NCBI GenBank assembly: GCA_039714075.1
Contig: JBDLKA010000034.1
Coordinates: 1 to 32,241, forward strand
Length of the DNA stretch: 32,241 bases
Direction: 5' to 3'
Source: Candidatus Krumholzibacteriota bacterium
GTDB taxonomy: Bacteria > Krumholzibacteriota > Krumholzibacteriia > LZORAL124-64-63
This document shows positions 1-28,392 of the stretch, piece after piece. Each line of letters begins with the position of its first letter. The stretch's first letter is position 1. A model generated the notes under the pieces. It saw nothing but the letters and a program-made list of their open reading frames with translations. It made no database searches and was not told the DNA's origin. Both the position numbers and the translations under genes were made by a program.

Positions 1-75
1 AGCGTCGGCGTCGGCGGGCATCAGCGGACGGATATGGATGGACCGGCCGTCCTTGAGAACGATGTTGCGCTCCAT
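1..75 (-). CDS. 5' part of a probable GNAT-family N-acetyltransferase (runs off window)
   Basis: Manual translation MERNIVLKDGRSIHIRPLMPADADA resembles the 'LKDGRxxxIRPLxPxD' GNAT N-terminus; AGGAAAGG RBS upstream of ATG at 75. Confidence 0.6.
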   Translation of the reverse strand, partial: MERNIVLKDGRSIHIRPLMPADADA

Positions 76-105
76 GATTTCCTTTCCTGTTGACCGGCTC
101 CGGGT

Positions 106-609
106 TCAGGCGACCGGGGCCGGCGAGGCGTCGAGCAGGGATTTCAATCCCCGCAGCACCCGGTGGAGGCAGGCGGGGTACGCCCGCGCTACCGGGGGAG
201 TCAGGCCCTTGCCGAAAGTCAGGTCGTCGACGATTTCCACCGCGAAAACATGGATGTCGGAATCCCGGGGAAGCTTCATGCCCAGGCTCCGTCCCAATGC
301 CAGGGCGGTGGCGAAGTTGGCATCGTGTACGTTACACAGATTGGCTGTCTCCCGCAGGTCGGCGGCGGTGAACCGGTAACACGTTCCCGGCTTGCCGCCC
401 CTGGTGTGGATGGCGTCCAGGACGACGGCCTGCTCGAAACCCTCCAGGTAATCCAGAAGGTTCAGCCCGCCTACGCTGCACTCCTCGACAACCACCACGT
501 CCGGCCGGTCGCACAGGGCCAGGTTGACGTCTCGCGCCAGGCGCACTCCCACCGAATCGTCGCTGAGGATGGGATTGCCCATACCGATAATGGTGGTGGT
601 TGCCCGCAC
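106..609 (-). CDS. [NiFe]-hydrogenase maturation endopeptidase (HycI/HyaD family)
   Basis: GMGNPILSDDSVG, VVLDAI and NVHD motifs; directly downstream of the large-subunit gene; GTG start with GGAGG RBS. Confidence 0.92.
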   Translation of the reverse strand: MRATTTIIGMGNPILSDDSVGVRLARDVNLALCDRPDVVVVEECSVGGLNLLDYLEGFEQAVVLDAIHTRGGKPGTCYRFTAADLRETANLCNVHDANFATALALGRSLGMKLPRDSDIHVFAVEIVDDLTFGKGLTPPVARAYPACLHRVLRGLKSLLDASPAPVA

Positions 610-618
610 ACCCGCCTC

Positions 619-2088
619 CTAACCGATGCCCCGCTGGAATGTCCGCACCGTTTCGCCGCCCTGCACGATGTCCACCTGGAGCGGCATTTTGCCGGGCAGA
701 CTGTGGGTGGCGCAGCTGTAGCAGGGATCGAAGCTGCGGAACGCCATTTCCACCAGGTTCAGCACGCCCTGGTCGGGTTCGACCCCCGGCTTGATCATGG
801 TGGCGGCCACCTTTTTCGTGACCATGTGGATCGCCGCGTTGTTGTTCGTCGTGCCGACGATGAGATTGGCGCTGGTGCAAATCCCGTTGTCGTCGCAGGT
901 GTAGTGGTGGGTCAGGGTGCCGCGCATGGCCTCGACGATGCCCACGCCCTCACCGGTAATATTGTCGGGCACCACACGGAACTCATCGCCGGTGATTTCC
1001 GGGTCGTCGCAGTAACGTTGCAGCATCTCGGCGTTCTGTACCATTTCCACCAACCGCGCCCAGTGCGAGGCCAAAAGGGCCTTGCAGGGACGGCCGCCCA
1101 GCGTGGCGAACATTTCCTCGTAGGCTTCCTGGGCCTTCGGTGTGGCCATGCGCTCGGCCACGTTCAGGCGGCTGAGCGGGGTGGCGGTGTAGAGGGGGCT
1201 GTCCTTGCCCTCGACGAAGCCCTGCCAGCCGCGCTGTTTCAGGTAGGGGAACTTCAGGTAGGTCCAGGGTTCCACGTGCTCGGCCACGTGGTCGGCGTAC
1301 TCGTGCTCGTTGTACCGGCAGATCTCCTGGCCCTCGCAGTCCACGACGCGCACCTGGCCGTCGTAGAAGTTCGGCGCCAGGTTCTCGTCGACCAGGCCCA
1401 TGTTGTGGACGTTCAGGGTGTAGGGCCCGTTCAGGATGAGATCCACGTACCCCTCGTTGCCCAGGACGACATCCTTGAACAACTGCAGAGAGAACTGGGT
1501 GAATTCGTAGAGGTTGGCCACCAGGGGTTTGATCTCTTCCAGTTCCTCGGTTTTCAGTCCCTTGGACACGCCCCCGGGAATGCACCACACCAGGTGGGTC
1601 GTGCGTCCGCCGATGATCTGCTGGATCCGCTGTGCCTGGCTGCGGGCCTCGATGACCTTGCCGCCGATTTCCAGACCGACCTTGGCCACCACGCCCAGGA
1701 TGTTGCGCTGGGCCGGATCGGAATCCGGACCGCACACGAAATCGGGGGCGGCCAGGGCGTAGAAGTGGGCCGTGTGGCTGTGGATGTAGTGGGCGTGGTA
1801 GTACATGTCCCGCAGCTTGTGGGCCAGGGGCGCCACCTGCCAGCCGAAGCATCCGTCGACCGCCTTGGCGCTGGCCATGTGATGGCTGGCCGGACAGACC
1901 CCGCAGATGCGCGTGACGATTCGCGGCAGCTCCTCGATGGGCCGTCCCTCGACGAAACGTTCGAAACCGCGCAACTCGGGAATCTGGAAGTAGCAGTCCT
2001 CGACCGCGCCGTCGTCGTCCAGGAAGATCTGGATCTTGCCGTGGCCCTCGAGACGGGTGATGGGATCGATGGCGATTTCCCTGCTCAT
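619..2088 (-). CDS. mvhA: Group 3c (Mvh/Vhu-type) [NiFe]-hydrogenase large subunit
   Basis: Start reassigned to MSREIAIDPITRLEGHG (ATG 2088, AGGAG RBS); L1 RICGVCP and L2 FDPCYSCATH followed by a cleavable C-terminal extension; EAMRGTLTHHY. Confidence 0.93.
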   Translation of the reverse strand: MSREIAIDPITRLEGHGKIQIFLDDDGAVEDCYFQIPELRGFERFVEGRPIEELPRIVTRICGVCPASHHMASAKAVDGCFGWQVAPLAHKLRDMYYHAHYIHSHTAHFYALAAPDFVCGPDSDPAQRNILGVVAKVGLEIGGKVIEARSQAQRIQQIIGGRTTHLVWCIPGGVSKGLKTEELEEIKPLVANLYEFTQFSLQLFKDVVLGNEGYVDLILNGPYTLNVHNMGLVDENLAPNFYDGQVRVVDCEGQEICRYNEHEYADHVAEHVEPWTYLKFPYLKQRGWQGFVEGKDSPLYTATPLSRLNVAERMATPKAQEAYEEMFATLGGRPCKALLASHWARLVEMVQNAEMLQRYCDDPEITGDEFRVVPDNITGEGVGIVEAMRGTLTHHYTCDDNGICTSANLIVGTTNNNAAIHMVTKKVAATMIKPGVEPDQGVLNLVEMAFRSFDPCYSCATHSLPGKMPLQVDIVQGGETVRTFQRGIG

Positions 2089-3068
2089 CACTGGCTCCTT
2101 GTGCTGCGCTGAAGGGTGGATGCCGGCAGACCGAAACGGTAGGCGTAGCCCATCACGTCGGGGATCTCGTCCAGAACGCGCTCCATTTCCCCGGCGTTGC
2201 GGCTTTCGACGATCGAACTGACGGCGCTGATGAACTTGGCGCCCTGGTCCTTGACGTTGGGGGGCGGGCCGTAGCAGCCGCGGCAGGGCATGCCGCTGTC
2301 GGGGCAGCGCACGCCGCAGCCGGCCCGGGTCACCGAGCCCGCACAGATGATGCCCTGCTCCAGGAGGCACTTTTCAGGATCCTGGATGATCTGCCAGGGG
2401 CGCCGGAACTGCGTGACTTTCTTCTCGTCCTTGCGGCGCTCGCACTCGTCGCACAGGGCGCGGTCGCTTGCGCCCACCACCGACCCGGGCCGCGGCAGGT
2501 CGCCGGTCGCCACCGCCAACAGGACCGCCTTGATCTGTGCGGGAGCCGGAGGGCATCCGGGCACGAAATATTCCACCTGGACGACGTCGGACAGCCGGCG
2601 CACCGCACCGTGGAAATGGGGAATCTCCAGGGTGCCGGACGCCACCTTCTTCTCGGCCACCGGCAGCACCACGTTGTCCTCTTCGATGGACGGATTATCC
2701 AGGTAGGCGCGGTTGAAGATCTCCTCGCGGCTGCACTCGTTGGCCAGACCGGGGATGCCTCCCAGATGGGCGCAGCTGCCGAGGGCCACCATGACCTTGG
2801 TCTTGCGCCGCAGCAATTCGGCGATTTTCCGGTTCTCGCTGTTGCGCACCGCGCCGTTGAACAGCACAAGGTCCAGTTCGCCGTCGTCCATGGCCTCGAC
2901 ATCGGCGTATTTGCCGTCCACGGCGATGGGCCACAGGCGGATGTCCGCCAGTTCCGCCACGTCGAGAATGAAGGCGTCGGTGTCGAGCACGGCCACGTCG
3001 CAGCCGCCGCAGGCCGCGCCCCAGTAGATGGCGATCTGCAGCTTCTTCTTTTCCGTTGTTTCAGCCAT
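2088..3068 (-). CDS. mvhG: Mvh-type hydrogenase small Fe-S subunit
   Basis: ACGGCD, GSCAHLGG, VPGCPP, CDEC, CLLEQGIICAG..GCGVRCP..PCRGCYG; no Tat signal; TGATG coupling to mvhA. Confidence 0.92.
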   Translation of the reverse strand: MAETTEKKKLQIAIYWGAACGGCDVAVLDTDAFILDVAELADIRLWPIAVDGKYADVEAMDDGELDLVLFNGAVRNSENRKIAELLRRKTKVMVALGSCAHLGGIPGLANECSREEIFNRAYLDNPSIEEDNVVLPVAEKKVASGTLEIPHFHGAVRRLSDVVQVEYFVPGCPPAPAQIKAVLLAVATGDLPRPGSVVGASDRALCDECERRKDEKKVTQFRRPWQIIQDPEKCLLEQGIICAGSVTRAGCGVRCPDSGMPCRGCYGPPPNVKDQGAKFISAVSSIVESRNAGEMERVLDEIPDVMGYAYRFGLPASTLQRSTRSQ

Positions 3069-3531
3069 GGGTCACCTCCCGGACGACGGGGGCGTCGGGA
3101 TGGGTTCCCGGCTCGAGCGAAAGATCCGGCGGAAGTTCCAGCGGCCCGAGTTCCTTCAGTTCGGCCGTCATGGTGTCCACCAGCCGGGCGAAACGCTCGC
3201 CCTCGCTGGCGCTGACCCACTCCAGGCGCAGCCGCTGTTTTTCGATCCCGTAAGAAACCATCAGTCTCTTGAGCAACTGGAAGCGCCGGTAGGCCTTGTC
3301 GTTGCCTTCCAGGTAATGGCAGTCTCCGGGATGGCAGCCGCAGATCATCACCCCGTCCGCGCCCGAGGCGAAGGCCTGCATGACGAAGGTCGGATCGACA
3401 CGGCCCGAACACATGACGCGGATCACCCGCAGGTTCGGCCGGTGTTTGATACGCGCGGTTCCCGCCAGGTCGGCGCCCGTGTACGAGCACCAGTTGCAGA
3501 GAAAACCGACTATGGTTGGCTCGAACTCCAT
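3061..3531 (-). CDS. mvhD: MvhD/FlpD [2Fe-2S] adaptor subunit
   Basis: FLCNWCSYTGAD, VMCSGRVD, GCHPGDCHY, WVSASEG motifs. Confidence 0.95.
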   Translation of the reverse strand: MEFEPTIVGFLCNWCSYTGADLAGTARIKHRPNLRVIRVMCSGRVDPTFVMQAFASGADGVMICGCHPGDCHYLEGNDKAYRRFQLLKRLMVSYGIEKQRLRLEWVSASEGERFARLVDTMTAELKELGPLELPPDLSLEPGTHPDAPVVREVTHG

Positions 3532-5243
3532 GCCAGGACTCCTTCGATCTGTTCAAGGATCTGCTCGTCGGTGAAATGGCGCGCGGCGATGGCCCCGCTG
3601 GGGCAAGCGGCGACACACGTGCCGCAGGCTTTGCAGAGCGCGCTTTGCACATCACTGCGGCCCTCGTCGGGGTCGTAGGCGATGGCGGTGTAGGGACACA
3701 GTTCGTTGCATACGCGGCACCCGGAGCACAGGTCGCCGTCGATCTGGGCGTAACGGGCGTCGACCTCGACCTTGCCCTGGGCGATGTAGCCCAGCACCAT
3801 GGCCGCCGCGGCGCGGGCCTGGGCCACGGTATCGGGGATGTCCTTGGGCGACTGGCAGCAACCGGCGATGAACACGCCCTCGGTCGGCGTCGAGACCGGC
3901 GCCAGCTTGGGGTGGCTTTCAATGAACCAGCCTTCGACATCCTGGCTGATGCCCACCGTGCGCGCGACCTGATCGCTGTCGGCGCGGGCCTGCATGCCCA
4001 CCATCAGCACCACCAGGTCGGCCGGGACATCGATGGTTTCTCCCGACAGCCTTTCCCGCACCTGAACCAGCAGGCCGCAGTCGTCGCCCGCCTCGGCGGC
4101 CCTGACCACGGGGTAGTCCTCCTTCTCGTACATCAGGAACATGGTCTTCAGTTCGGAAGTGCGGCGGTACAGATCCTCGCCGCCCTTGCCGAAACTGAGC
4201 ATGTCGACGTACAGGTCGGTGACCATGGCCTCGGGCAGGGCGGACTTGATCTCGTGACCGTATTTCAAGGCCGTCATGCAGCAGACCCGCGAGCAGTAGG
4301 TGTGATACTTCACGTTGCGGGAGCCCACGCAGTGAACGATGGAGACATAACGCGGCACCCGGCCGTCGGCGGTTTCCAGCCGGCCCGAACGCAGCCGCTG
4401 CTCGAGTTCGAAGCTGGTGATCACGTCCAGATGCTTGCCGTAGCCCAATCGCTCGACGCGGGTGGCGTCGAACTCGTGGTATCCCGTACAGACGACCACG
4501 CTTCCCACCGGAAACTCCGTATCGGAGCCGTCCTGGTGGGTGACCGTGCCGGTGAAATTTCCCACGAATCCCTGCAGGTCCGTCAGGGTCGAACGAAGAT
4601 GGACATCGATGCGGGGGTTGGTCTCGGCCTGGACGATTTTTTCGGCCAGCAGATCACGCGCCGAATCGAGATACGGGGCCGTCAGATCGACGCGGCCCAC
4701 GTTGCCGCCCAGCCGGCCTTCCTGTTCGATCAGGTGCACGTGCTGCCCGGCGTCGGCCAGCTCCACCGCGACGGTCAATCCGGCGATGCCGCCTCCCAGG
4801 ACCATGGTCGCCGGGGTGTAGGGGGCCTCCTGTTTCTCCAGTGGCTGGTGCCGGGCAACGCGGCGGACGGCGGCGTGGGTCAGGTCCGCCGCCTTGGCCG
4901 TGGCCTTGGCTGGGTCGTCGTGCACCCAGCTGCACTGCTCGCGGATATTGGCCATCTCCAGCATGAAGGGATTCAGTCCGGCGGCTTCGAGCGCCTTGCG
5001 GAAGGTCGGCTCATGCATGCGGGGGCTGCAGGCGGCGACCACCACGCGGTCCAGACCGTGCTCCTTGATGTCCTGGGTGATCATGTCCTGTCCGGGATTG
5101 GAGCACATGTACTTGTAGGTGCGGGCGCAGGCTACTTCGGGCAGGTCGGCCACCCGGTGGCAGACCCTTTCGGCATTGACCACCTTGGCGATATTCGTCC
5201 CGCAGTTGCAGATGTAGACGCCGATGCGGCACTCGTCGTTCAT
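3510..5243 (-). CDS. hdrA: HdrA-family FAD/Fe-S protein (paralogue 2: intact N-terminal Cys domain and C-terminal ferredoxin, no inserted ferredoxin)
   Basis: RIGVYICNCG, YMCS, AACSP, EQCSW; GGGIAG FAD motif; HCVGSR..YCSRVCCMTALK; GCCQSPKDIP; C-terminal CxxCxxCxxxCP twice. Confidence 0.92.
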   Translation of the reverse strand: MNDECRIGVYICNCGTNIAKVVNAERVCHRVADLPEVACARTYKYMCSNPGQDMITQDIKEHGLDRVVVAACSPRMHEPTFRKALEAAGLNPFMLEMANIREQCSWVHDDPAKATAKAADLTHAAVRRVARHQPLEKQEAPYTPATMVLGGGIAGLTVAVELADAGQHVHLIEQEGRLGGNVGRVDLTAPYLDSARDLLAEKIVQAETNPRIDVHLRSTLTDLQGFVGNFTGTVTHQDGSDTEFPVGSVVVCTGYHEFDATRVERLGYGKHLDVITSFELEQRLRSGRLETADGRVPRYVSIVHCVGSRNVKYHTYCSRVCCMTALKYGHEIKSALPEAMVTDLYVDMLSFGKGGEDLYRRTSELKTMFLMYEKEDYPVVRAAEAGDDCGLLVQVRERLSGETIDVPADLVVLMVGMQARADSDQVARTVGISQDVEGWFIESHPKLAPVSTPTEGVFIAGCCQSPKDIPDTVAQARAAAAMVLGYIAQGKVEVDARYAQIDGDLCSGCRVCNELCPYTAIAYDPDEGRSDVQSALCKACGTCVAACPSGAIAARHFTDEQILEQIEGVLAWSSSQP

Positions 5244-5253
5244 GTCGCCCTCC

Positions 5254-6402
5254 TCAGGCGGTCTGGGCGGCCGGCTGTGGCCGCTCTTCGGTTTCTTCTT
5301 CGGCCAGCAGGGCCTTCTCGCGCATGGTCGAGAAGTACATCGCCAGCGGCCGGTAGGCCATGTGGGACCATTTGCTGAACGGCACCTCGAGCACCAGCAT
5401 GGGCACCACGCCCATCATGTGGGCGATGTAGACGACGTTGGCCGCCGTGGTCCACCCGCCACGGTGAAGAACGTGCTGGATGATGCCTGTCACCGACACC
5501 ACCAGCAGTAGCACCAGGAAGATCCAGTCCGTTTCATGGCTGTGCTGATAGTGGGTCCAGGTCTTTCGCACCCGGCCGGCCAGGGCGTAGATCGTCGTTC
5601 CCACCAACCCGGCCGCGGCGAGGTAGCCGAAGGCGTGGGCCTTCCAGTCGATGGCCGGCCCGTGCTGCACCCGGTGCAGGAAGAACATGATCAGGATCAG
5701 CATGGTCAGATAGCTGAGCATCAGCACCAGATGCACCGCCCAGGGTTGTTTGCGGTCGCACTGGCTGTAGCGGTGCTGGGTGATGAAGTGCCAGGGCACC
5801 AGGAACAGCTGTTTGATGTATTCGCCCGGCGGAATCCTGACCTCCTTGTCGGCACCGACGGTGTACCACCACATGCGCACGCAGTTGATGCCCAGCAGGA
5901 CCACCAGCACGCCCGCCATGACCCAGTCGAAGACGTGGATTTTTTCCGCCGGCAAAAACGCGCCCGGGCCGTCGTAGATGTTGATGTCGCCCTGCGCCAT
6001 TCCGAACAGCGTCAACCCCAGCCCGGTCAGCAGCGCCACCAGCACGATGGCCAGCAGTTCCGCCTTCGCGCTGCGGTAGAACAGACCGGAGATGCCGGTG
6101 AAATCGTAGCGGGCGGTCAGCCAGCGCCGCATGCTCATCATCGTCTCGCCGGGTTCCGCGCCGCGGGGGCATTCCTCCGAACATTCGCCGCAGTAGTAGC
6201 ACAGCCACGGCTCGAGGTTGCCCTGCAGCCGGGACGACAGCCCGAGCTGCAGGTAGCGCATGGATTTGCGGGGGAAGACGAATACGTCTCCGGAGAACGG
6301 ACAGGTGGCGCTGCAGTTGCCGCAGTGGTAGCACTTCACCACGTCCTGGGCGCCGTACTTCTCCAGCTCGTCGATCAGGTGTGGGTTGGCTCGGATGGCC
6401 AT
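5254..6402 (-). CDS. qmoC: QmoC-like protein: HdrC-like 2x[4Fe-4S] domain plus heme-b membrane anchor
   Basis: Start reassigned to MAIRANP (ATG 6402, GGAGGAG RBS); CYHCGNCSATCP and CYYCGECSEECP; about six hydrophobic helices with His residues; VPFSKWSHMAYRP NarI/HdrE-type end. Confidence 0.85.
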   Translation of the reverse strand: MAIRANPHLIDELEKYGAQDVVKCYHCGNCSATCPFSGDVFVFPRKSMRYLQLGLSSRLQGNLEPWLCYYCGECSEECPRGAEPGETMMSMRRWLTARYDFTGISGLFYRSAKAELLAIVLVALLTGLGLTLFGMAQGDINIYDGPGAFLPAEKIHVFDWVMAGVLVVLLGINCVRMWWYTVGADKEVRIPPGEYIKQLFLVPWHFITQHRYSQCDRKQPWAVHLVLMLSYLTMLILIMFFLHRVQHGPAIDWKAHAFGYLAAAGLVGTTIYALAGRVRKTWTHYQHSHETDWIFLVLLLVVSVTGIIQHVLHRGGWTTAANVVYIAHMMGVVPMLVLEVPFSKWSHMAYRPLAMYFSTMREKALLAEEETEERPQPAAQTA

Positions 6403-8246
6403 GGCTCCTCCTGTGTTTTGATGCTCGCCAGACGGGCCGCGGTGTCGGCCGCCTCCTCCGGCGAAACCGAATCGCGGCCCACGCGGACCGAACCGCTGAT
6501 GATGCTGCCCAGCACCCTTGCGGCCACGGCCGAGGCCTGGGCCACGGTATCGGGAATGTCCTTGGGCCCCTGGCAGACGCCCGCCACGTGGATGCCCCCG
6601 CGGTTGGTGGCCGTGGGGTCGGTGTTGTAGTTGAGTTCGGTGAACCAGCCGTCGCAGCCGGGATGGATGTCCAGCACCTTGGCCAGTCTCTGGGCGCCCC
6701 GGGCGGGCTCGAGGCCCACCGCCAGCAGCACCATATCCACCGGGAATTCCCGGATGCGGTCGTGGACGACGTCTTCGCCACGGATGACCATGCCGTCGGT
6801 GCCGGCCTCGATACGCGCGGTGCGGCCCCGGACCACGAACACGCCCTCGTCCTTGATGCGTTCGAAGAACTCCTCGTAGCCTTTGCCGAAGGCGCGCATG
6901 TCGATGTAGAACTGGTAACAGGCGGCGTCGGGAAGCTTTTCCTTCACCAGATGCGCGAACTTCAGCGAATACATGCAACAGACGCGCGAACAGTAGGGGT
7001 TGTGGTTCTGGTCCCGCGAACCCACGCAGTGGATGATGGCCACGCTGCGCGGCGCCGGGGCCTCGGTGTCGAACACCCACTCCTCCTGTTTGGTCTTGCG
7101 TTTGCGACGTGCGGTGCGGGTCACGATGCGTCCGCCGGTGGGGCCGGAGGCGTTGGTCAACCGCTCGAATTCGAGGGCGGTCAGCACGTTGGGCAGCTTG
7201 CCGTACCCGTAGCGCTCGATGAGCTCTGCGTCAAAGGTGTCGAAACCGGTGGCCACCACGATGTTGCCCACCGTCAATTCCTCCGAATGCGGCTCTTCAT
7301 CCAGGTGGATGGCGTCCTTGGGACACTTTTTCACGCAGGCCCCGCACTTTTTGCCTTCGGATTTGACCCACAGACAGTTTTCCCCGTCGACCACGTAGGA
7401 ATTCGGGATGGCCTGGGGAAAAGCCATGTAGATGGCCTTGCGCTCGACGATGCCTTCGTCGAATTCGCTGGGCACCCGCACCGGGCAGACGTCGCGGCAG
7501 GCGTGGCAGGCGACGCAGGCCTCGGGATCGACACGGCGCGCCCTCCGCAACACCCGCACCTTGTATTCACCCGCCACACCGCCGACGTCCTGCACCTCGG
7601 AGCAGTTCAGGATGTCGATGTTCTCGTGCTGCCCCGCCGCCACCATTTTCGGGGTCAGGATGCAGGCCGCGCAGTCGAGGGTAGGAAAGGTCTTGTCGAA
7701 CATGGCCATGTGGCCGCCGATGGTGGCGGCTCGTTCGACCAGGTGCACCTTGTGGCCGGCGCCGGCGATGCGCAGGGCCGTTTCGATGCCGGCGACCCCG
7801 GCGCCAATGACCAGGGTATCGGGATGGACCGGCACGCGGGCCGGTGTCACCGCCAGCCCGAACGGTACTCCGTGGACGGCGCAGGCGACCGCCGCCAGAG
7901 CGGAGTTTTCGGCCGCGCCCGTGGCGGCCCCGACCTCTCCGAAGGAAGCCAGCCGGACAAGCTCGGGATCTCCGCCGGCCATGACCATGGCCCGGGTGAA
8001 GACAGGCTTGTGTCCTCCGGGAGTGTCGCCCGCGATGACGACCTCGGTCAGTTGGAGACGCTGGATGGTTTCAGCCAGGATTTTCGGATCGGGTCTGGCC
8101 TCGGGGTCGAGCTCTTCCACGGCCGCCACGTCCGGGAGCTCACGGGCGAAGGCCATGATCCGGGGGATATCCAGTCCGTCAAGGCGGCCGGTGTCGGCGT
8201 GTGAAAAGAAGATGCCGATTTTTTTGGGGGACGCGGTGGGGGCCAT
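6375..8246 (-). CDS. hdrA: HdrA-family FAD/Fe-S protein (paralogue 1: Cys-free N-terminal domain, inserted ferredoxin, no C-terminal ferredoxin)
   Basis: Start reassigned to MAPTASPKK (ATG 8246, AAAGGA RBS); GAGVAG, DKTFPTLDCAACIL, CVACHACRDVCP, CGACVKKCP, CVGSRD..YCSRVCCMYSLK, DMRAFGKGYEEF, GVCQGPKDIP. Confidence 0.92.
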   Translation of the reverse strand: MAPTASPKKIGIFFSHADTGRLDGLDIPRIMAFARELPDVAAVEELDPEARPDPKILAETIQRLQLTEVVIAGDTPGGHKPVFTRAMVMAGGDPELVRLASFGEVGAATGAAENSALAAVACAVHGVPFGLAVTPARVPVHPDTLVIGAGVAGIETALRIAGAGHKVHLVERAATIGGHMAMFDKTFPTLDCAACILTPKMVAAGQHENIDILNCSEVQDVGGVAGEYKVRVLRRARRVDPEACVACHACRDVCPVRVPSEFDEGIVERKAIYMAFPQAIPNSYVVDGENCLWVKSEGKKCGACVKKCPKDAIHLDEEPHSEELTVGNIVVATGFDTFDAELIERYGYGKLPNVLTALEFERLTNASGPTGGRIVTRTARRKRKTKQEEWVFDTEAPAPRSVAIIHCVGSRDQNHNPYCSRVCCMYSLKFAHLVKEKLPDAACYQFYIDMRAFGKGYEEFFERIKDEGVFVVRGRTARIEAGTDGMVIRGEDVVHDRIREFPVDMVLLAVGLEPARGAQRLAKVLDIHPGCDGWFTELNYNTDPTATNRGGIHVAGVCQGPKDIPDTVAQASAVAARVLGSIISGSVRVGRDSVSPEEAADTAARLASIKTQEEPWPSEPTHT

Positions 8247-8551
8247 GATGGTCGCGGTCCTTTCTCGGGCGTGCCCATGACCGGGCGTGTGCCGGTGCCG
8301 CGAGAATCCGCTCCCTGCTTTGTCGTGGTGGCGTCCTTCGCTGTCGGGTGATCCTTCTAGGTTGTCGACCTTCATCAGTTGGGGCGCGAACCCTCGGGAT
8401 TACTTGAATCCTTACTGAAAAGCCTACTGAAAGGTTGTTAATTATTCAAGCAAAAATAATAAAAAATTAACGAACAAAAGGACGAAAAACCGACCTTTGG
8501 GTGGGAAATTGGAAAAACACACCTCAAAATAGGGTTTTTTTGGGGATATTT

Positions 8552-8569
8552 TTGTTAAAGAGTTAACAT
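8552..8569. promoter_or_regulatory. Rex-like operator palindrome TTGTTAA-AGAG-TTAACAT
   Basis: One mismatch to the TTGTTAA-N4-TTAACAA Rex-box variant; in the AT-rich region upstream of the hdrA operon. Confidence 0.6.
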
Positions 8570-8595
8570 TTTATATTAAACACCAAATTGTTCAA
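8568..8595 (-). promoter_or_regulatory. Putative sigma70 promoter of the hdrA-qmoC-mvh operon
   Basis: Minus strand TTGAAC-16 nt-TAAAAT, oriented toward hdrA, inside an AT-rich island. Confidence 0.45.
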
Positions 8596-8731
8596 AACGT
8601 TGTGAACCCTTATTTTGCGGGATCGGTGGGAAATTTGTCCCCAAAATCTTCCTTTGGGCAATTCCTGGTATAATTCCACGATGTGCCCTGGGGTCCGGTG
8701 GGGCCGGAAAACATCCCCTCGCCTTGCCGAT

Positions 8732-10429: not shown

Positions 10430-11464
10430 ATGAATAATGCGATCAGGCCCTTGTTGGTTCTTGCGGCCCTGTCCCTTCTCGTTCTTGCCGGCTGCGGCGG
10501 CGGAGAACCGGCCGATACGGCGGCCGGCGGACCGCCCACCCCGCAGCACAAGAACATGTTCGGCGGCATGCCGAAGGTCATGGAGTCGGCCGACAATCCC
10601 CTGACCGACGCCAAGATCGAGCTGGGCCGCATCCTCTATTACGAGCCCCGCATGTCGGTCAGCAATGACATTTCCTGCAACAGCTGCCACGTGCTGGATG
10701 AGTTCGGCGTGGACGGGTTGGCCACCTCGCCCGGCCACGACGGCACCCTCGGCGCCCGCAACAGCCCGACGGTCTACAACGCCGCCAATCACATCGCCCA
10801 GTTCTGGGACGGCCGCGAACCCACGGTCGAAGCCCAGGCCAAGGGCCCGATCCTCAACCCGGTCGAGCACGGCATGGCCTCAGCCGAGGCTGTTGAAGAG
10901 GTTCTGCGAGGCATTCCCGAGTACGCCCCCTTGTTCGAGGCGGCATTTCCGGGCGAGGAAGAGCCGGTCACCTTCGACAACGTGGCGATGGCCATCGGCG
11001 CCTTCGAGCGCAAGCTGACCACCCGCGGCGACTGGGACCGCTGGCTGGCGGGCGACGGCAACGCCATCACCGTTCAGGAGCGCCGCGGCCTGGACACCTT
11101 CACGGAAATCGGCTGCACGACCTGCCACATGGGTCCCAACCTGGGCGGATCGTTGTACCAGAAAATGGGATTGGTGGAGGCCTATCCTTCCGAGGACAAG
11201 GGTCGCTCGGAGGTAACCGGCAACGCGGCCGAGGAGTACTTCTTCAAGGTGCCGTCCCTGCGAAACATCGCCGAGACCGGTCCCTATATGCATGACGGCT
11301 CGCTCGAGTCCCTGGAAGAGGTCGTGCGGATCATGGCCAAGCACCAGCTCGGCAAGCCCGTGACCGAGGCGCAGGTCGCCGACATGGTGGCCTTCATGAA
11401 GAAGCTCACGGGCAAGTTGCCGGCGGAGTACATTACCGAGCCGAAGTTGCCGGGGATGTCGTAG
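10430..11464 (+). CDS. Di-heme cytochrome c peroxidase (CCP/MauG family), lipoprotein
   Basis: CNSCH and CTTCH heme motifs; RNSPTVYNA, QFWDGR, PILNPVEH, FKVPSLRNI, PYMHDG; lipobox LAGC. Confidence 0.93.
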   Translation: MNNAIRPLLVLAALSLLVLAGCGGGEPADTAAGGPPTPQHKNMFGGMPKVMESADNPLTDAKIELGRILYYEPRMSVSNDISCNSCHVLDEFGVDGLATSPGHDGTLGARNSPTVYNAANHIAQFWDGREPTVEAQAKGPILNPVEHGMASAEAVEEVLRGIPEYAPLFEAAFPGEEEPVTFDNVAMAIGAFERKLTTRGDWDRWLAGDGNAITVQERRGLDTFTEIGCTTCHMGPNLGGSLYQKMGLVEAYPSEDKGRSEVTGNAAEEYFFKVPSLRNIAETGPYMHDGSLESLEEVVRIMAKHQLGKPVTEAQVADMVAFMKKLTGKLPAEYITEPKLPGMS

Positions 11465-26279: not shown

Positions 26280-27731
26280 CTATTTGATGAGCATCATCTT
26301 TCGGGTCTGCACGAATCCGTCCGCGGTGACCGAATAGAGATAGACACCGGCGCTGACGGTCGTGCCGGCGGCATCGGTACCGTCCCAGATCACGGTGTGG
26401 TCGCCGGGACCATAGGTTCCGTCCACCAGCGTCCGAATCTTCTTCCCGGCAAGATCGAAGATCTCAAGCCGTACGGCCGAACCGGTCGGCAGGCTGAAAC
26501 TTATCTCTGTCTTCGGGTTGAAGGGATTCGGATGGTTCTGGGAAAGTCCGTATTTACTGGGTAAATCCTTGTCGCCCAACAGACCCTCGAGATCCAGGTT
26601 CCTCGACTTGTTCTGATCGCACTGGCCGACGGCAGGAGCACCGCACATGCAATCCATCGGCGCCGGGCCGCCATTGAACATGTAGTCGACCAGATAGTCG
26701 ATATCGCCCATGTCGATGATGCAGTCGGCGTTGACGTCGCCGTTGCCCAGGGTGCTGGGCTCCGGTCCGCCGTTGCAGAGGAAATCGATCAGGAAGGTGA
26801 GATCGACGATATCGATCCCGCCGCTGTTGTCGAGATCGCCGGGAACCACGCCGTCGCAGTCGAAGGCGCACTCACCGATGGTCGGCGCGCCACACTCGCA
26901 ATCCATGGGCGCGGGTCCGCCGTTGAACATGTAGTCCACCAGATAGTAGACGTCGTCCCCGTCGATGATGCAGTCGGCGTTGACGTCGCCGTTACCCAGG
27001 GGGCTGGGCGGAGGACCGCCCTTGCAGAGCATGTTGATCAGGTAAACGAGGTCACTGATGTCGACTTGGCCGTCGGTGTTGGCGTCACCGTTGACCACGT
27101 AGTCGCAGGACGCTTCACACCCGCCGATGGTCGGTGCGCCACACACGCAGTCCATGGGCGCGGGGCCGCCGTTGAACATGTAGTCGACCAGATAGTAGAC
27201 GTCGTCCAGGTTGATGATGCAGTCGGCGTTGACGTCGCCGTTGCCCAAGGGGCTGGGCGGCGGACCGCCGTGGCAGAGCATGTTGATGATGAAGGTGAGG
27301 TCGCCGATGTCGAGCTGGCCGTCGCCGTTGGCGTCGCCCGGTAACACGACATCACAGGACGCTTCGCACGGACCGATGACGGGTGTACCACACACGCAAT
27401 CCAATGGTGCGGGGCCGCCCTTGAACATGTAGTCGACCAGATAGTAGGCATCGTCCAGGTTGATCTCGCAGTCGGCGTTGACGTCGCCGTTACCCAAAGG
27501 GAAGGGCGGCGGACCGTCGTGGCAGACAAAGTTGATAATGGACACGAGGTCGCTGATGTCGATTTGGCCGTCATTGTTGAAGTCGCCGGGCGTCACGCCA
27601 CGGCACGTATCAGGTGGAGGCAGAATGCCGCCCCCGCCACCAGGCAGGGAATCGGTCCCGCCGATGGCCAGAGTGGGACAGAGCAGAGCGGTCACCATCA
27701 GACAGATAGACAGGCGGACAAATGTTCGCAT
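26280..27731 (-). CDS. Secreted protein with four tandem Cys-rich dockerin-like domains and C-terminal FlgD-Ig/sorting domain
   Basis: Start MRTFVRLS (ATG 27731, AGGAGG RBS); signal peptide; 4x GDxNxDGxxDIxDL...GDVNADCxIxxxD; QNHPNPFNPKTEISFSL..WDGTD..GVYLY..TRKMMLIK. Confidence 0.88.
   Translation of the reverse strand: MRTFVRLSICLMVTALLCPTLAIGGTDSLPGGGGGILPPPDTCRGVTPGDFNNDGQIDISDLVSIINFVCHDGPPPFPLGNGDVNADCEINLDDAYYLVDYMFKGGPAPLDCVCGTPVIGPCEASCDVVLPGDANGDGQLDIGDLTFIINMLCHGGPPPSPLGNGDVNADCIINLDDVYYLVDYMFNGGPAPMDCVCGAPTIGGCEASCDYVVNGDANTDGQVDISDLVYLINMLCKGGPPPSPLGNGDVNADCIIDGDDVYYLVDYMFNGGPAPMDCECGAPTIGECAFDCDGVVPGDLDNSGGIDIVDLTFLIDFLCNGGPEPSTLGNGDVNADCIIDMGDIDYLVDYMFNGGPAPMDCMCGAPAVGQCDQNKSRNLDLEGLLGDKDLPSKYGLSQNHPNPFNPKTEISFSLPTGSAVRLEIFDLAGKKIRTLVDGTYGPGDHTVIWDGTDAAGTTVSAGVYLYSVTADGFVQTRKMMLIK
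26610..27605 (-). repeat. Four 249-bp (83-aa) intragenic tandem repeats
   Basis: CAGTCGGCGTTGACGTCGCCGTT recurs at 26722, 26971, 27220 and 27469 (period 249). Confidence 0.92.
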
Positions 27732-27867
27732 AATCGGGACCTCCTGAGGGAGTGAAAGGTTGTACCGGAGATCGTGTCCAGGTTGTTGGGAGAAAAATCC
27801 TGGCGACGATTCCGGAACCAGCGTCCCCGAACAAAGAGTTTGGCCGATTTTCAAGGGATTATTCGCG

Positions 27868-28392
27868 TCAGGGTGAGTCGGTCGAATCCGGGGGAGCGAA
27901 CTCCAATTCCAGCCGGGCGGCATCTGCTTCCTGGATTGTGATATACGACCGCGTGTCCCTGACCATGGTCTCGAGATCCAACCCGAGTTTCCTTTCCCCG
28001 GTCCACCGCGCGTGCCGCAAAGAATGATCATGCAGCCGCATTGCCCCGACAGGCCGGTCGGTAAATGCCTTCAAATGCGCCGCCGCGCACTGAATGACCG
28101 CCTGCAGCACATGCCCGGCATCGCTGCCGACCCCCGCCGCCAGCCACAATCCTTCCAGCACCTCGTGGCACTCCCACCAGTACCCTTCGTTGAACAGATC
28201 GATGCCGTACAGGTATTCTTCGCTCTTCCGCCAGTCCTCGTGGTTCAGGTCCGGCAGGTCGGGTTCGGGGCGACCGTAGGAGTGCCCCTCGGGGTTCCGC
28301 GTGGGGTGCGGCGTCTTTCCCGGAAGGTGGCGGTAGTCCGGAAGGGGCCTGTCGGTGTATCTTTTGCCGTCGGAGCCGGTCATGTTCGCCAT
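27868..28392 (-). CDS. DUF309-domain protein
   Basis: YLYGIDLFNEGYWWECHEVLEGLW..IQCAAAH; N-terminal PGKTPHP. Confidence 0.85.
   Translation of the reverse strand: MANMTGSDGKRYTDRPLPDYRHLPGKTPHPTRNPEGHSYGRPEPDLPDLNHEDWRKSEEYLYGIDLFNEGYWWECHEVLEGLWLAAGVGSDAGHVLQAVIQCAAAHLKAFTDRPVGAMRLHDHSLRHARWTGERKLGLDLETMVRDTRSYITIQEADAARLELEFAPPDSTDSP

Follow-up and report, generated by a model that had tools for sequence, protein, structure and literature searches.

A bacterial operon predicted to encode a Qmo-type membrane complex with an Mvh hydrogenase for electron bifurcation from H2 to menaquinone and ferredoxin

We describe a seven-gene operon from a Candidatus Krumholzibacteriota bacterium (GenBank assembly GCA_039714075.1, contig JBDLKA010000034.1), which brings together an Mvh-type hydrogenase, two HdrA-like flavoproteins and the membrane protein QmoC. 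The DNA analyzed, referred to here as the window, is the whole stretch of 32,241 nucleotides. The operon probably encodes, in a judgement that we make with some reserve, a reversible H2:menaquinone/ferredoxin bifurcating enzyme, built as a membrane-attached complex of the Qmo type with a hydrogenase on its MvhD arm. A preliminary description of this region had proposed a hybrid complex of this kind. The composition (Mvh, two HdrA-like proteins and QmoC, with neither HdrB nor AprAB), the conserved synteny and the iron-sulfur (Fe-S) architecture give that proposal partial support, whereas the novelty claimed for it was overstated.

The seven genes are co-directional on the minus strand (8246..106), in the order hdrA'-qmoC-hdrA''-mvhD-mvhG-mvhA-protease, as assigned from the open reading frame (ORF) list, Pfam and NCBIfam (Table 1). 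Gene set, order and coordinates (106-8246) agree with the preliminary description when read on this strand. The genes are closely packed, and their junctions are, in gene order, a 28-nt overlap, a 10-nt gap, a 22-nt overlap, an 8-nt overlap, a 1-nt overlap and a 9-nt gap, none exceeding 28 nt. The hdrA' ORF extends to an upstream ATG at 8375, and the lengths of its orthologs (597-622 aa) agree with the start at 8246. The operon had also been credited with its own promoter. The sigma-70-like site in the leader lends this weak support, but the promoter scan of 8.8 kb returned two such sites against 1.2 expected by chance, which is a count at chance level. The reported lack of hdrB and aprAB was borne out, as neither the operon nor the other 26 window ORFs scanned include an hdrB/CCG, aprAB or dsrAB gene.

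Table 1. Genes of the operon and its upstream leader, with window coordinates
Feature	Position	Strand	Length	Basis
hdrA'	8246..6375	-	623 aa	Pfam, NCBIfam, PDB alignment
qmoC	6402..5254	-	382 aa	NCBIfam NF038018, PDB HdrC chains
hdrA''	5243..3510	-	577 aa	Pfam, NCBIfam, PDB alignment
mvhD	3531..3061	-	156 aa	PF02662 FlpD
mvhG	3068..2088	-	326 aa	PF01058
mvhA	2088..619	-	489 aa	PF00374
hydrogenase maturation endopeptidase	609..106	-	167 aa	TIGR00072 90.8 bits, above cut-off 47; PF01750
AT-rich intergenic leader upstream of hdrA'	8376..8731	-	355 nt	one sigma-70-like site 8595..8568

The two HdrA-like proteins complement each other in their cysteine patterns. HdrA' aligns to a solved HdrA (8rvu_a, E 3.6e-129) over the N-terminal, thioredoxin-reductase and inserted-ferredoxin domains, and ends ahead of the C-terminal ferredoxin domain, which is absent. 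It possesses an FAD-binding thioredoxin-reductase domain, a two-cluster inserted ferredoxin domain and the motif CX12CX3CC, together with a Cys pair, C192/C195 (DCAAC), at the position of Cys197 of methanogen HdrA. Its N-terminal domain is present, with the cluster cysteines replaced (SHAD for CHCG, DTP for CSP). The alignment of HdrA'' to solved HdrA (E 1.2e-147) falls into two blocks, with the inserted domain passed over. Retained in HdrA'' are the cysteines of the N-terminal cluster (C12, C14, C47 and C72), the FAD domain and CX12CX3CC, along with a two-cluster C-terminal ferredoxin domain; the inserted ferredoxin domain and the Cys197-type pair are missing (DSARD for DCxxC). We compared the window proteins with 38 orthologs of each from related loci (at least 45% identity, more than 540 aa), and these complementary patterns were found in 39/39 HdrA' and 39/39 HdrA'' sequences, except at the first N-terminal cluster position of HdrA'. 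That position, residue 15 (window 8246..8202), is Ser in the window and Cys in 31 of the 39, while the other three N-terminal positions are never Cys; the residual Cys looks like a relic of a lost cluster. The GxGxxG motif of HdrA' is invariant in 27/27 sequences. Both paralogs had been named HdrA2, which is indeed the top NCBIfam model for each. However, they score 527 bits (HdrA', covering model positions 1-567 of 777) and 577 bits against a cut-off of 1100, both are also under the HdrA cut-off, and their architecture is QmoA-like and QmoB-like, respectively.

A division of this kind between HdrA subunits has been described. Chadwick et al. (2022, PMC9012536), in the accessible part of the article, state that one HdrA subunit supplies the Cys197 by which the N-terminal cluster of its partner is completed, and inferred HdrA heterodimers in anaerobic methanotrophic archaea (ANME) from tandem genes in which Cys197 and the N-terminal and C-terminal-ferredoxin features are complementary. 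In the published HdrA path, as given in the portion available, FAD', HA4' on the high-potential route and HA5'/HA6, which make up the inserted domain and exit, belong to the partner subunit. This is the same division as that between HdrA'' and HdrA', and it suggests that HdrA'' with MvhDGA forms an arm and HdrA' the bifurcating core with the ferredoxin exit. An HdrA'/HdrA'' heterodimer would hold one complete bifurcation unit, against two in the methanogen homodimer.

The same partition is seen in Qmo. For this comparison, 10 QmoA and 11 QmoB sequences from aprBA-linked loci were examined column by column for cysteines and domains. QmoA (~420-455 aa) has the thioredoxin-reductase Cys pair and a partial inserted domain, in which most sequences keep 5 of 8 Cys, and is without the N-terminal and C-terminal domains. 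QmoB (~714-747 aa) has the N-terminal Cys, the C-terminal ferredoxin domain and a fused MvhD, with no Cys pair and no inserted domain. By these features HdrA' matches a long QmoA, and HdrA'' together with MvhD matches a split QmoB. This correspondence argues that the operon encodes a Qmo-type complex whose MvhD module would carry MvhGA.

The gene set recurs well beyond the window. A QmoC profile built from 24 sequences identified 457 genome stretches encoding a relative, of which the best 80 were kept and sorted by tblastn with the seven window proteins. Long HdrA' and/or HdrA'' types adjoin qmoC in 46 of these 80 loci. In 35 of them the HdrA'/HdrA'' pair stands next to qmoC and mvhA lies within 8 kb on the same strand; in another 8 the pair and qmoC are cut by a contig end, and in 3 the same core has MvhD and two Fe-S proteins (Fer4_8 and Fer4_22 types) upstream in place of MvhGA. 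One locus of 1.3 kb was too short for classification, and the remaining 33 are of other kinds, including classical aprBA-qmoABC (aprBA in 11/33), one Methanoperedens locus, and TusA/DsrE-associated sets in Chloroflexota and Actinomycetota. According to the database records, the 35 Mvh-linked loci belong to Bacteroidota (19), Acidobacteriota (8) and one each of Actinomycetota, Latescibacterota, Chrysiogenota and Ignavibacteriota, with 4 lacking a phylum; the block thus occurs in at least six phyla. The mvhDGA genes are located downstream of the core in 23 of the 35 and upstream in 12. Recurrence in 35 of 80 related loci places the gene set far beyond chance, and the conserved synteny is an argument for the seven genes acting together as a unit.

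The surroundings of these loci were also surveyed. aprBA was found in none of the 35 Mvh-linked loci, compared with 11 of the 33 other loci. Within 4.5 kb of the 35 operons there are 245 flank ORFs, of which 196 were scanned, 122 at E <= 1e-12 and 74 at 1e-6; 14 of the 122 that gave no match were rescanned at 1e-6, and the 49 left out were hand-picked, for the most part those at the greatest distance from the operon. The 196 scanned ORFs yielded no CCG/HdrB, Apr or Dsr domain. Recurrent flank genes include two-component systems, Hyp maturation genes and, once, Nqr genes. A Crp/Fnr-type regulator is encoded directly upstream of hdrA' in five loci, four from Bacteroidota and one from Ignavibacteriota (locus and coordinates L052:7323-8030, L055:1753-2484, L058:370-753, L072:7305-8042 and L077:7691-8443), and a Rex-type repressor (CoA_binding + Put_DNA-bind_N) near three (L037:3999-4697, L038:4023-4679 and L059:7286-7912). 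These neighbors hint at redox-dependent control.

Several loci illustrate variation on this arrangement. The three with the alternative Fe-S module (L011:3094-9980, L013:3307-8134 and L016:4683-7678) have an hdrA'-qmoC(-hdrA'') core with MvhD and the Fer4_8/Fer4_22-type proteins upstream and no MvhGA; their hosts are an Anaeromyxobacter, an uncultured deltaproteobacterium and an Acidobacteriota metagenome-assembled genome (MAG), and two of them have a sigma-54 two-component pair further upstream. Two Actinomycetota loci (L007:3867-11143 and L018:4390-11131) encode a QmoC 62-65% identical to that of the window within a set of TusA, (MvhD), an HdrL/GltD-like flavoprotein of ~900 aa, an HdrA''-type protein and DsrE, which looks like a sulfur-trafficking context. 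A further Actinomycetota locus (L002:6-5954, minus strand) carries a second, divergent mvhDGA upstream of the hdrA'-qmoC operon, adjoining a long HdrA (825-aa ORF) and a small HdrC-like Fe-S protein, so that two Mvh systems are adjacent. In Ca. Methanoperedens (L078:10001-17198), qmoC is followed by three HdrA-like and two MvhD genes, and no hydrogenase gene is present in the available stretch.

The hydrogenase module can be classified from its closest relatives and motifs. The best solved relative of MvhA is the methanogen MvhA 5odc_F (E 9.3e-118, full length), and its best NCBIfam model is VhuA, at 368 bits under a cut-off of 800. Its translation contains RICGVCPASH near the N-terminus and DPCYSCATH ahead of a C-terminal extension for the protease. 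MvhG matches PF01058 (E 1e-22), with VhuG as its best NCBIfam model (199 bits, under the cut-off of 450). MvhD, the [2Fe-2S] adaptor subunit, has a clean FlpD domain (PF02662, E 2.8e-53) and VhuD as its best NCBIfam model, again under the cut-off. Because it aligns to positions 647-774 of the HdrA2 model, MvhD is, by this alignment, the counterpart of the C-terminal domain of QmoB and HdrA2. Group 3c is defined by a large subunit most similar to MvhA/VhuA that partners MvhD and has the two NiFe-binding motifs; with all of these present, the hydrogenase is group-3c-like [NiFe] by sequence.

QmoC would provide the link to the membrane. It spans the NCBIfam qmoC model NF038018 end to end (positions 5-360 of 360), and over residues 1-95 its best PDB matches are solved HdrC chains (E 6.4e-11). 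This HdrC-like domain has two CxxCxxCxxxC motifs and is followed by about six hydrophobic helices. Among 76 sequences, the eight Fe-S Cys are kept in 74-76, His224, His328 and His347 in all, His289 in 74 and His310 in 72; the Cys and at least five His are kept alike in Mvh-linked and Apr-linked loci. The helices and conserved His are consistent with a cytochrome b and quinone-site domain. Since the fold search with the QmoC model gave no significant match, with NarI chains at ranks 10, 29 and 45 (probability 0.41-0.69, and 0.69 at rank 10), the cytochrome b assignment is drawn from sequence features. The closest QmoC relatives in the protein database share 92% identity with the window QmoC.

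Phylogenetic analysis suggests that QmoC has moved between systems. A quick IQ-TREE of QmoC (76 rows) resolved two deep clades (100% SH-aLRT). Clade I includes the window and 27 other Mvh-linked loci, the 3 alternative-module loci, 3 of the core loci cut by a contig end, 3 Apr-linked Myxococcota and 2 Actinomycetota loci. Clade II includes 8 Mvh-linked Bacteroidota/Ignavibacteriota loci and 1 contig-end-cut core locus, as well as the classical Desulfobacterota QmoC, the Chloroflexota loci and Methanoperedens. We considered whether Mvh-linked QmoC forms a subfamily apart from Apr-linked QmoC, and rejected this, as the two are interleaved in the tree. In the HdrA'/QmoA tree (74 rows), by contrast, all 42 long HdrA' fall on one side of a branch with 100% support. 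Given the disagreement between the trees, QmoC appears to have been exchanged between systems, which argues that it has one common job in all of them, namely contact with the quinone pool.

Taken together, the Fe-S architecture fits one input, from MvhD into the C-terminal ferredoxin domain of HdrA'', and two outputs, through the HdrA' inserted domain and through QmoC. In the mechanism we propose, the QmoA-like HdrA' and the QmoB-like HdrA'' would pair as a heterodimer and MvhA would oxidize H2, passing electrons through MvhG and the MvhD [2Fe-2S] cluster to the C-terminal ferredoxin domain of HdrA'' and then to the HdrA' FAD, where bifurcation would occur. The high-potential electron would travel by the cluster of the HdrA' thioredoxin-reductase domain to the two [4Fe-4S] clusters in the HdrC-like domain of QmoC, then to hemes b and menaquinone. 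The low-potential electron would enter a shared cluster, formed by the HdrA'' N-terminal Cys and one Cys of the HdrA' pair C192/C195, and reach ferredoxin by way of the inserted ferredoxin domain of HdrA' with its two clusters. The predicted net reaction is 2 H2 + MQ + 2 Fd(ox) -> MQH2 + 2 Fd(red) + 2 H+, with reversal expected at low H2. The standard potentials are -414 mV for H2, about -75 mV for menaquinone and about -450 to -500 mV for ferredoxin, so the forward reaction is exergonic and the reverse feasible only at low H2. We infer the association of the subunits, the binding of heme and quinone, both acceptors and the direction. The HdrC-like domain of QmoC would take the place of HdrC on HdrA', a placement for which the 28-nt overlap of hdrA' and qmoC is the sole aid.

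Several observations weigh against this proposal. Both paralogs carry GxGxxG and CX12CX3CC, so the bifurcating FAD is not distinguishable from the sequences and the paralog contacted by QmoC is left ambiguous. The window QmoC, at 183 bits, does not reach the curated equivalog cut-off of 300 for NF038018; its AF2 model is mediocre (pLDDT 65.3, pTM 0.67), and a Foldseek search of this model against the PDB returned no match at E <= 0.001. The operon contains no ferredoxin gene. Furthermore, if the quinone site lies at the outer face, as the topology reasoned from the QmoC sequence would have it, electron flow from H2 to quinone runs with the membrane potential, which makes the direction ambiguous.

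The question of direction raises an alternative that we regard as unlikely yet deserving of real weight: the same complex may work in reverse, confurcating menaquinol and reduced ferredoxin into H2, as a means for fermenters without a terminal acceptor to dispose of quinol electrons. By database record, most hosts are Bacteroidales, Acidobacteriota, Aminicenantes and Latescibacterota, lineages usually regarded as fermenters or facultative anaerobes, and the Crp/Fnr-type (five loci) and Rex-type (three loci) neighbors suggest control by redox state. HdrA-type bifurcation is reversible in principle, and confurcation of quinol with a second donor has been proposed for QmoABC (PMC3333476 and PMC10553843, in their accessible text). 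However, H2 evolution would be feasible only at very low H2, as judged by the standard potentials, and harder still if quinol electrons have to cross the membrane against the potential, a point made in the accessible text of Ramos et al. (2012, PMC3333476). The Hyp genes and the maturation protease are uninformative on direction.

A second alternative, which we rate lower, concerns the low-potential exit. Instead of reducing free ferredoxin, HdrA' may deliver its electrons to a partner protein whose gene is unlinked, for instance APS or sulfite reductase, DsrC, a polyferredoxin or some other reductase, in which case H2 and quinol, or H2 alone, would drive the reaction of that partner. QmoA, which HdrA' resembles, directly contacts AprAB (Ramos et al. 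2012, PMC3333476, accessible text), the inserted ferredoxin domain of methanogens docks polyferredoxin or FmdF (PMC12350162), and the Apr-linked Myxococcota QmoC lie inside the clade of the window QmoC. However, neither the 35 Mvh-linked loci (aprBA) nor their 196 scanned flank ORFs (Apr/Dsr) offer such a partner, HdrA' has a full two-cluster inserted domain where most QmoA sequences keep five of the eight Cys, and many of the host lineages are not known as sulfate reducers. Finally, a complex that does not bifurcate at all, acting as a membrane-anchored H2:menaquinone oxidoreductase or a quinol-driven hydrogenase with the HdrA proteins as wires and the inserted domain vestigial or regulatory, is improbable. 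In its favor, H2 to menaquinone is strongly exergonic alone by standard potentials, the operon lacks a ferredoxin gene and one half-site of the heterodimer already looks vestigial. Against it, the retention of all 8 inserted-domain Cys and the shared-cluster Cys in 39/39 sequences across phyla argues for selection on the low-potential branch, and a seven-gene flavoprotein machine would be costly given that group 1 has simpler quinone-reducing hydrogenases.

A broader picture can be put forward, which we hold tentatively. The operon may represent a bacterial respiratory enzyme that is widespread but has so far been overlooked: a flavin-bifurcating hydrogenase anchored in the membrane, which would link H2 to both the quinone pool and ferredoxin in Bacteroidota, Acidobacteriota and further phyla rich in anaerobes. 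Its HdrA heterodimer would be obligately asymmetric with one working bifurcation unit, and QmoC would be an interchangeable quinone module swapped among APS-reductase-linked, hydrogenase-linked and other HdrA systems. If the bifurcation mechanism proposed here is right, quinone joins the heterodisulfide as a high-potential acceptor of HdrA-type bifurcation, the "soluble" group 3c hydrogenase becomes part of a respiratory chain, and many bacterial Mvh-type hydrogenases without HdrBC gain an explained role. Lineages common in soil, sediment and digesters would be able to reduce low-potential ferredoxin with H2, or to form H2 from quinol. The orphan MvhD domain of QmoB would also be given a concrete partner, a point of relevance to an old question, the driving of APS reduction by QmoABC. 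As a natural single-unit version of the enzyme, the asymmetric HdrA pair, split over two genes, could ease dissection of the bifurcation mechanism.

The host of the window is a didermic bacterium. The 26 scanned ORFs outside the operon include those for a DUF4197 protein, ABC/MacB/HlyD/TolC-type transport, LptF/G, an S41 peptidase, GDPD, an MFS transporter and GNAT acetyltransferases; no Rfam family or tRNA was found by scans of the window. The window is rich in G+C, with 0.64-0.66 over positions 1..8000 and 0.54-0.64 beyond, falling to 57% right past the operon, a shift for which either horizontal acquisition or simply the AT-rich leader could be responsible. A di-haem cytochrome c peroxidase is encoded at 10430..11464 on the plus strand, a possible peroxide defence in a hydrogenase-bearing anaerobe. 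The ORF at 26280..28031 on the minus strand encodes a protein of 583 aa that has three dockerin repeats and ends in a FlgD-Ig domain.

Among known systems, QmoABC of Desulfovibrio and relatives has the same QmoC architecture, with full-length alignment and interleaved QmoC sequences. The operon differs in having no linkage to aprBA, a gene order of A-C-B, a QmoB split into two genes and a hydrogenase on the MvhD module, and its QmoC is under the equivalog cut-off. HdrA' is ~200 aa longer than QmoA, with the Cys-less N-terminal domain and the full two-cluster inserted domain, and mvhD, fused in QmoB, is here a gene of its own, with a 22-nt overlap with hdrA'', and stands upstream with mvhGA in 12 of the 35 Mvh-linked loci. 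In 2012, the role of QmoB was called enigmatic, with a hydrogenase named among its possible partners (PMC3333476, accessible text).

The methanogen MvhAGD-HdrABC complex (PDB 5odc, 8rvu and 9sw2) provides the best solved relatives of the Mvh subunits and aligns with the HdrA domains at E 1e-129 to 1e-147, and the logic of electron input and output is common to both. In contrast to that complex, the operon has no HdrB and hence no heterodisulfide site, its HdrC is fused to a predicted membrane cytochrome b, and two degenerate paralogs that complement each other stand in for the four-domain, six-cluster HdrA homodimer; the high-potential acceptor is predicted to be quinone. The tandem or fused HdrA pairs of ANME and Moorella, as described in the accessible text of PMC9012536, show a like complementarity, with one copy bearing Cys197 and lacking the N-terminal Cys. 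Their partners there are others, among them HdrBC, FrhB and MetFV, and a text search of this article gave no occurrence of QmoC.

The closest precedent is the "Mvh-Qmo-Hdr" cluster of the Archaeoglobi Ca. Methanoglobus nevadensis and Ca. M. hypatiae (bioRxiv 10.1101/2022.12.01.518715 and 10.1101/2023.09.08.556235; PMC10945360), cited here from the accessible parts of these sources. Buessecker et al. (10.1101/2022.12.01.518715) found it "tempting to speculate" on electron flow among H2, ferredoxin and menaquinone. Lynes et al. (10.1101/2023.09.08.556235) named the cluster, put forward bifurcation of H2 electrons to menaquinone and ferredoxin as a hypothesis, and reported expression of the Ca. 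M. hypatiae gene set at 995-2,431 RPKM. A suggested "QmoC/HdrA/Mvh-hydrogenase complex" is also mentioned in the accessible text of PMC12008871, and the "HdrAC2"-MvhAGD cluster of Dissulfuribacter thermophilus might be related. The preliminary description, which knew of no biochemically characterized complex of this composition, had added the caveat that surveys might list it; the caveat was sound, since for Ca. Methanoglobus both gene set and hypothesis are in print. The idea is therefore already published, and the operon is a bacterial example of a predicted kind. No biochemistry and no account of bacterial distribution appeared in the literature searched, although the review of HdrA modules by Appel et al. 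(2021) or article supplements, which lay outside that search, may list the module. Nothing on this cluster was found in PMC10553843 or PMC11237513, and nothing on the ligands of the HdrA clusters in PMC5861303 or PMC12054007. The present analysis adds the equivalence to QmoA and QmoB, the asymmetric pattern of the putative heterodimer and its conservation, the wide distribution in bacteria and the evidence for QmoC as a swappable module.

None of the 80 loci kept is from Methanoglobus. Compared by description, the Methanoglobus cluster has the same stated content as the operon, MvhAGD with two HdrA homologs and a QmoC/HdrC fusion with cytochrome b. According to the accessible text, one of its HdrA copies was classed as QmoB by DiSCo, the genomes are without AprAB, and HdrB was reported absent in Ca. 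M. hypatiae. Methanoglobus are thermophilic methanogenic archaea, whereas the window is bacterial (LptFG, TolC-type and MacB genes). The archaeal cluster was called "unique" by its authors; here, 35 bacterial species-level genomes carry the block.

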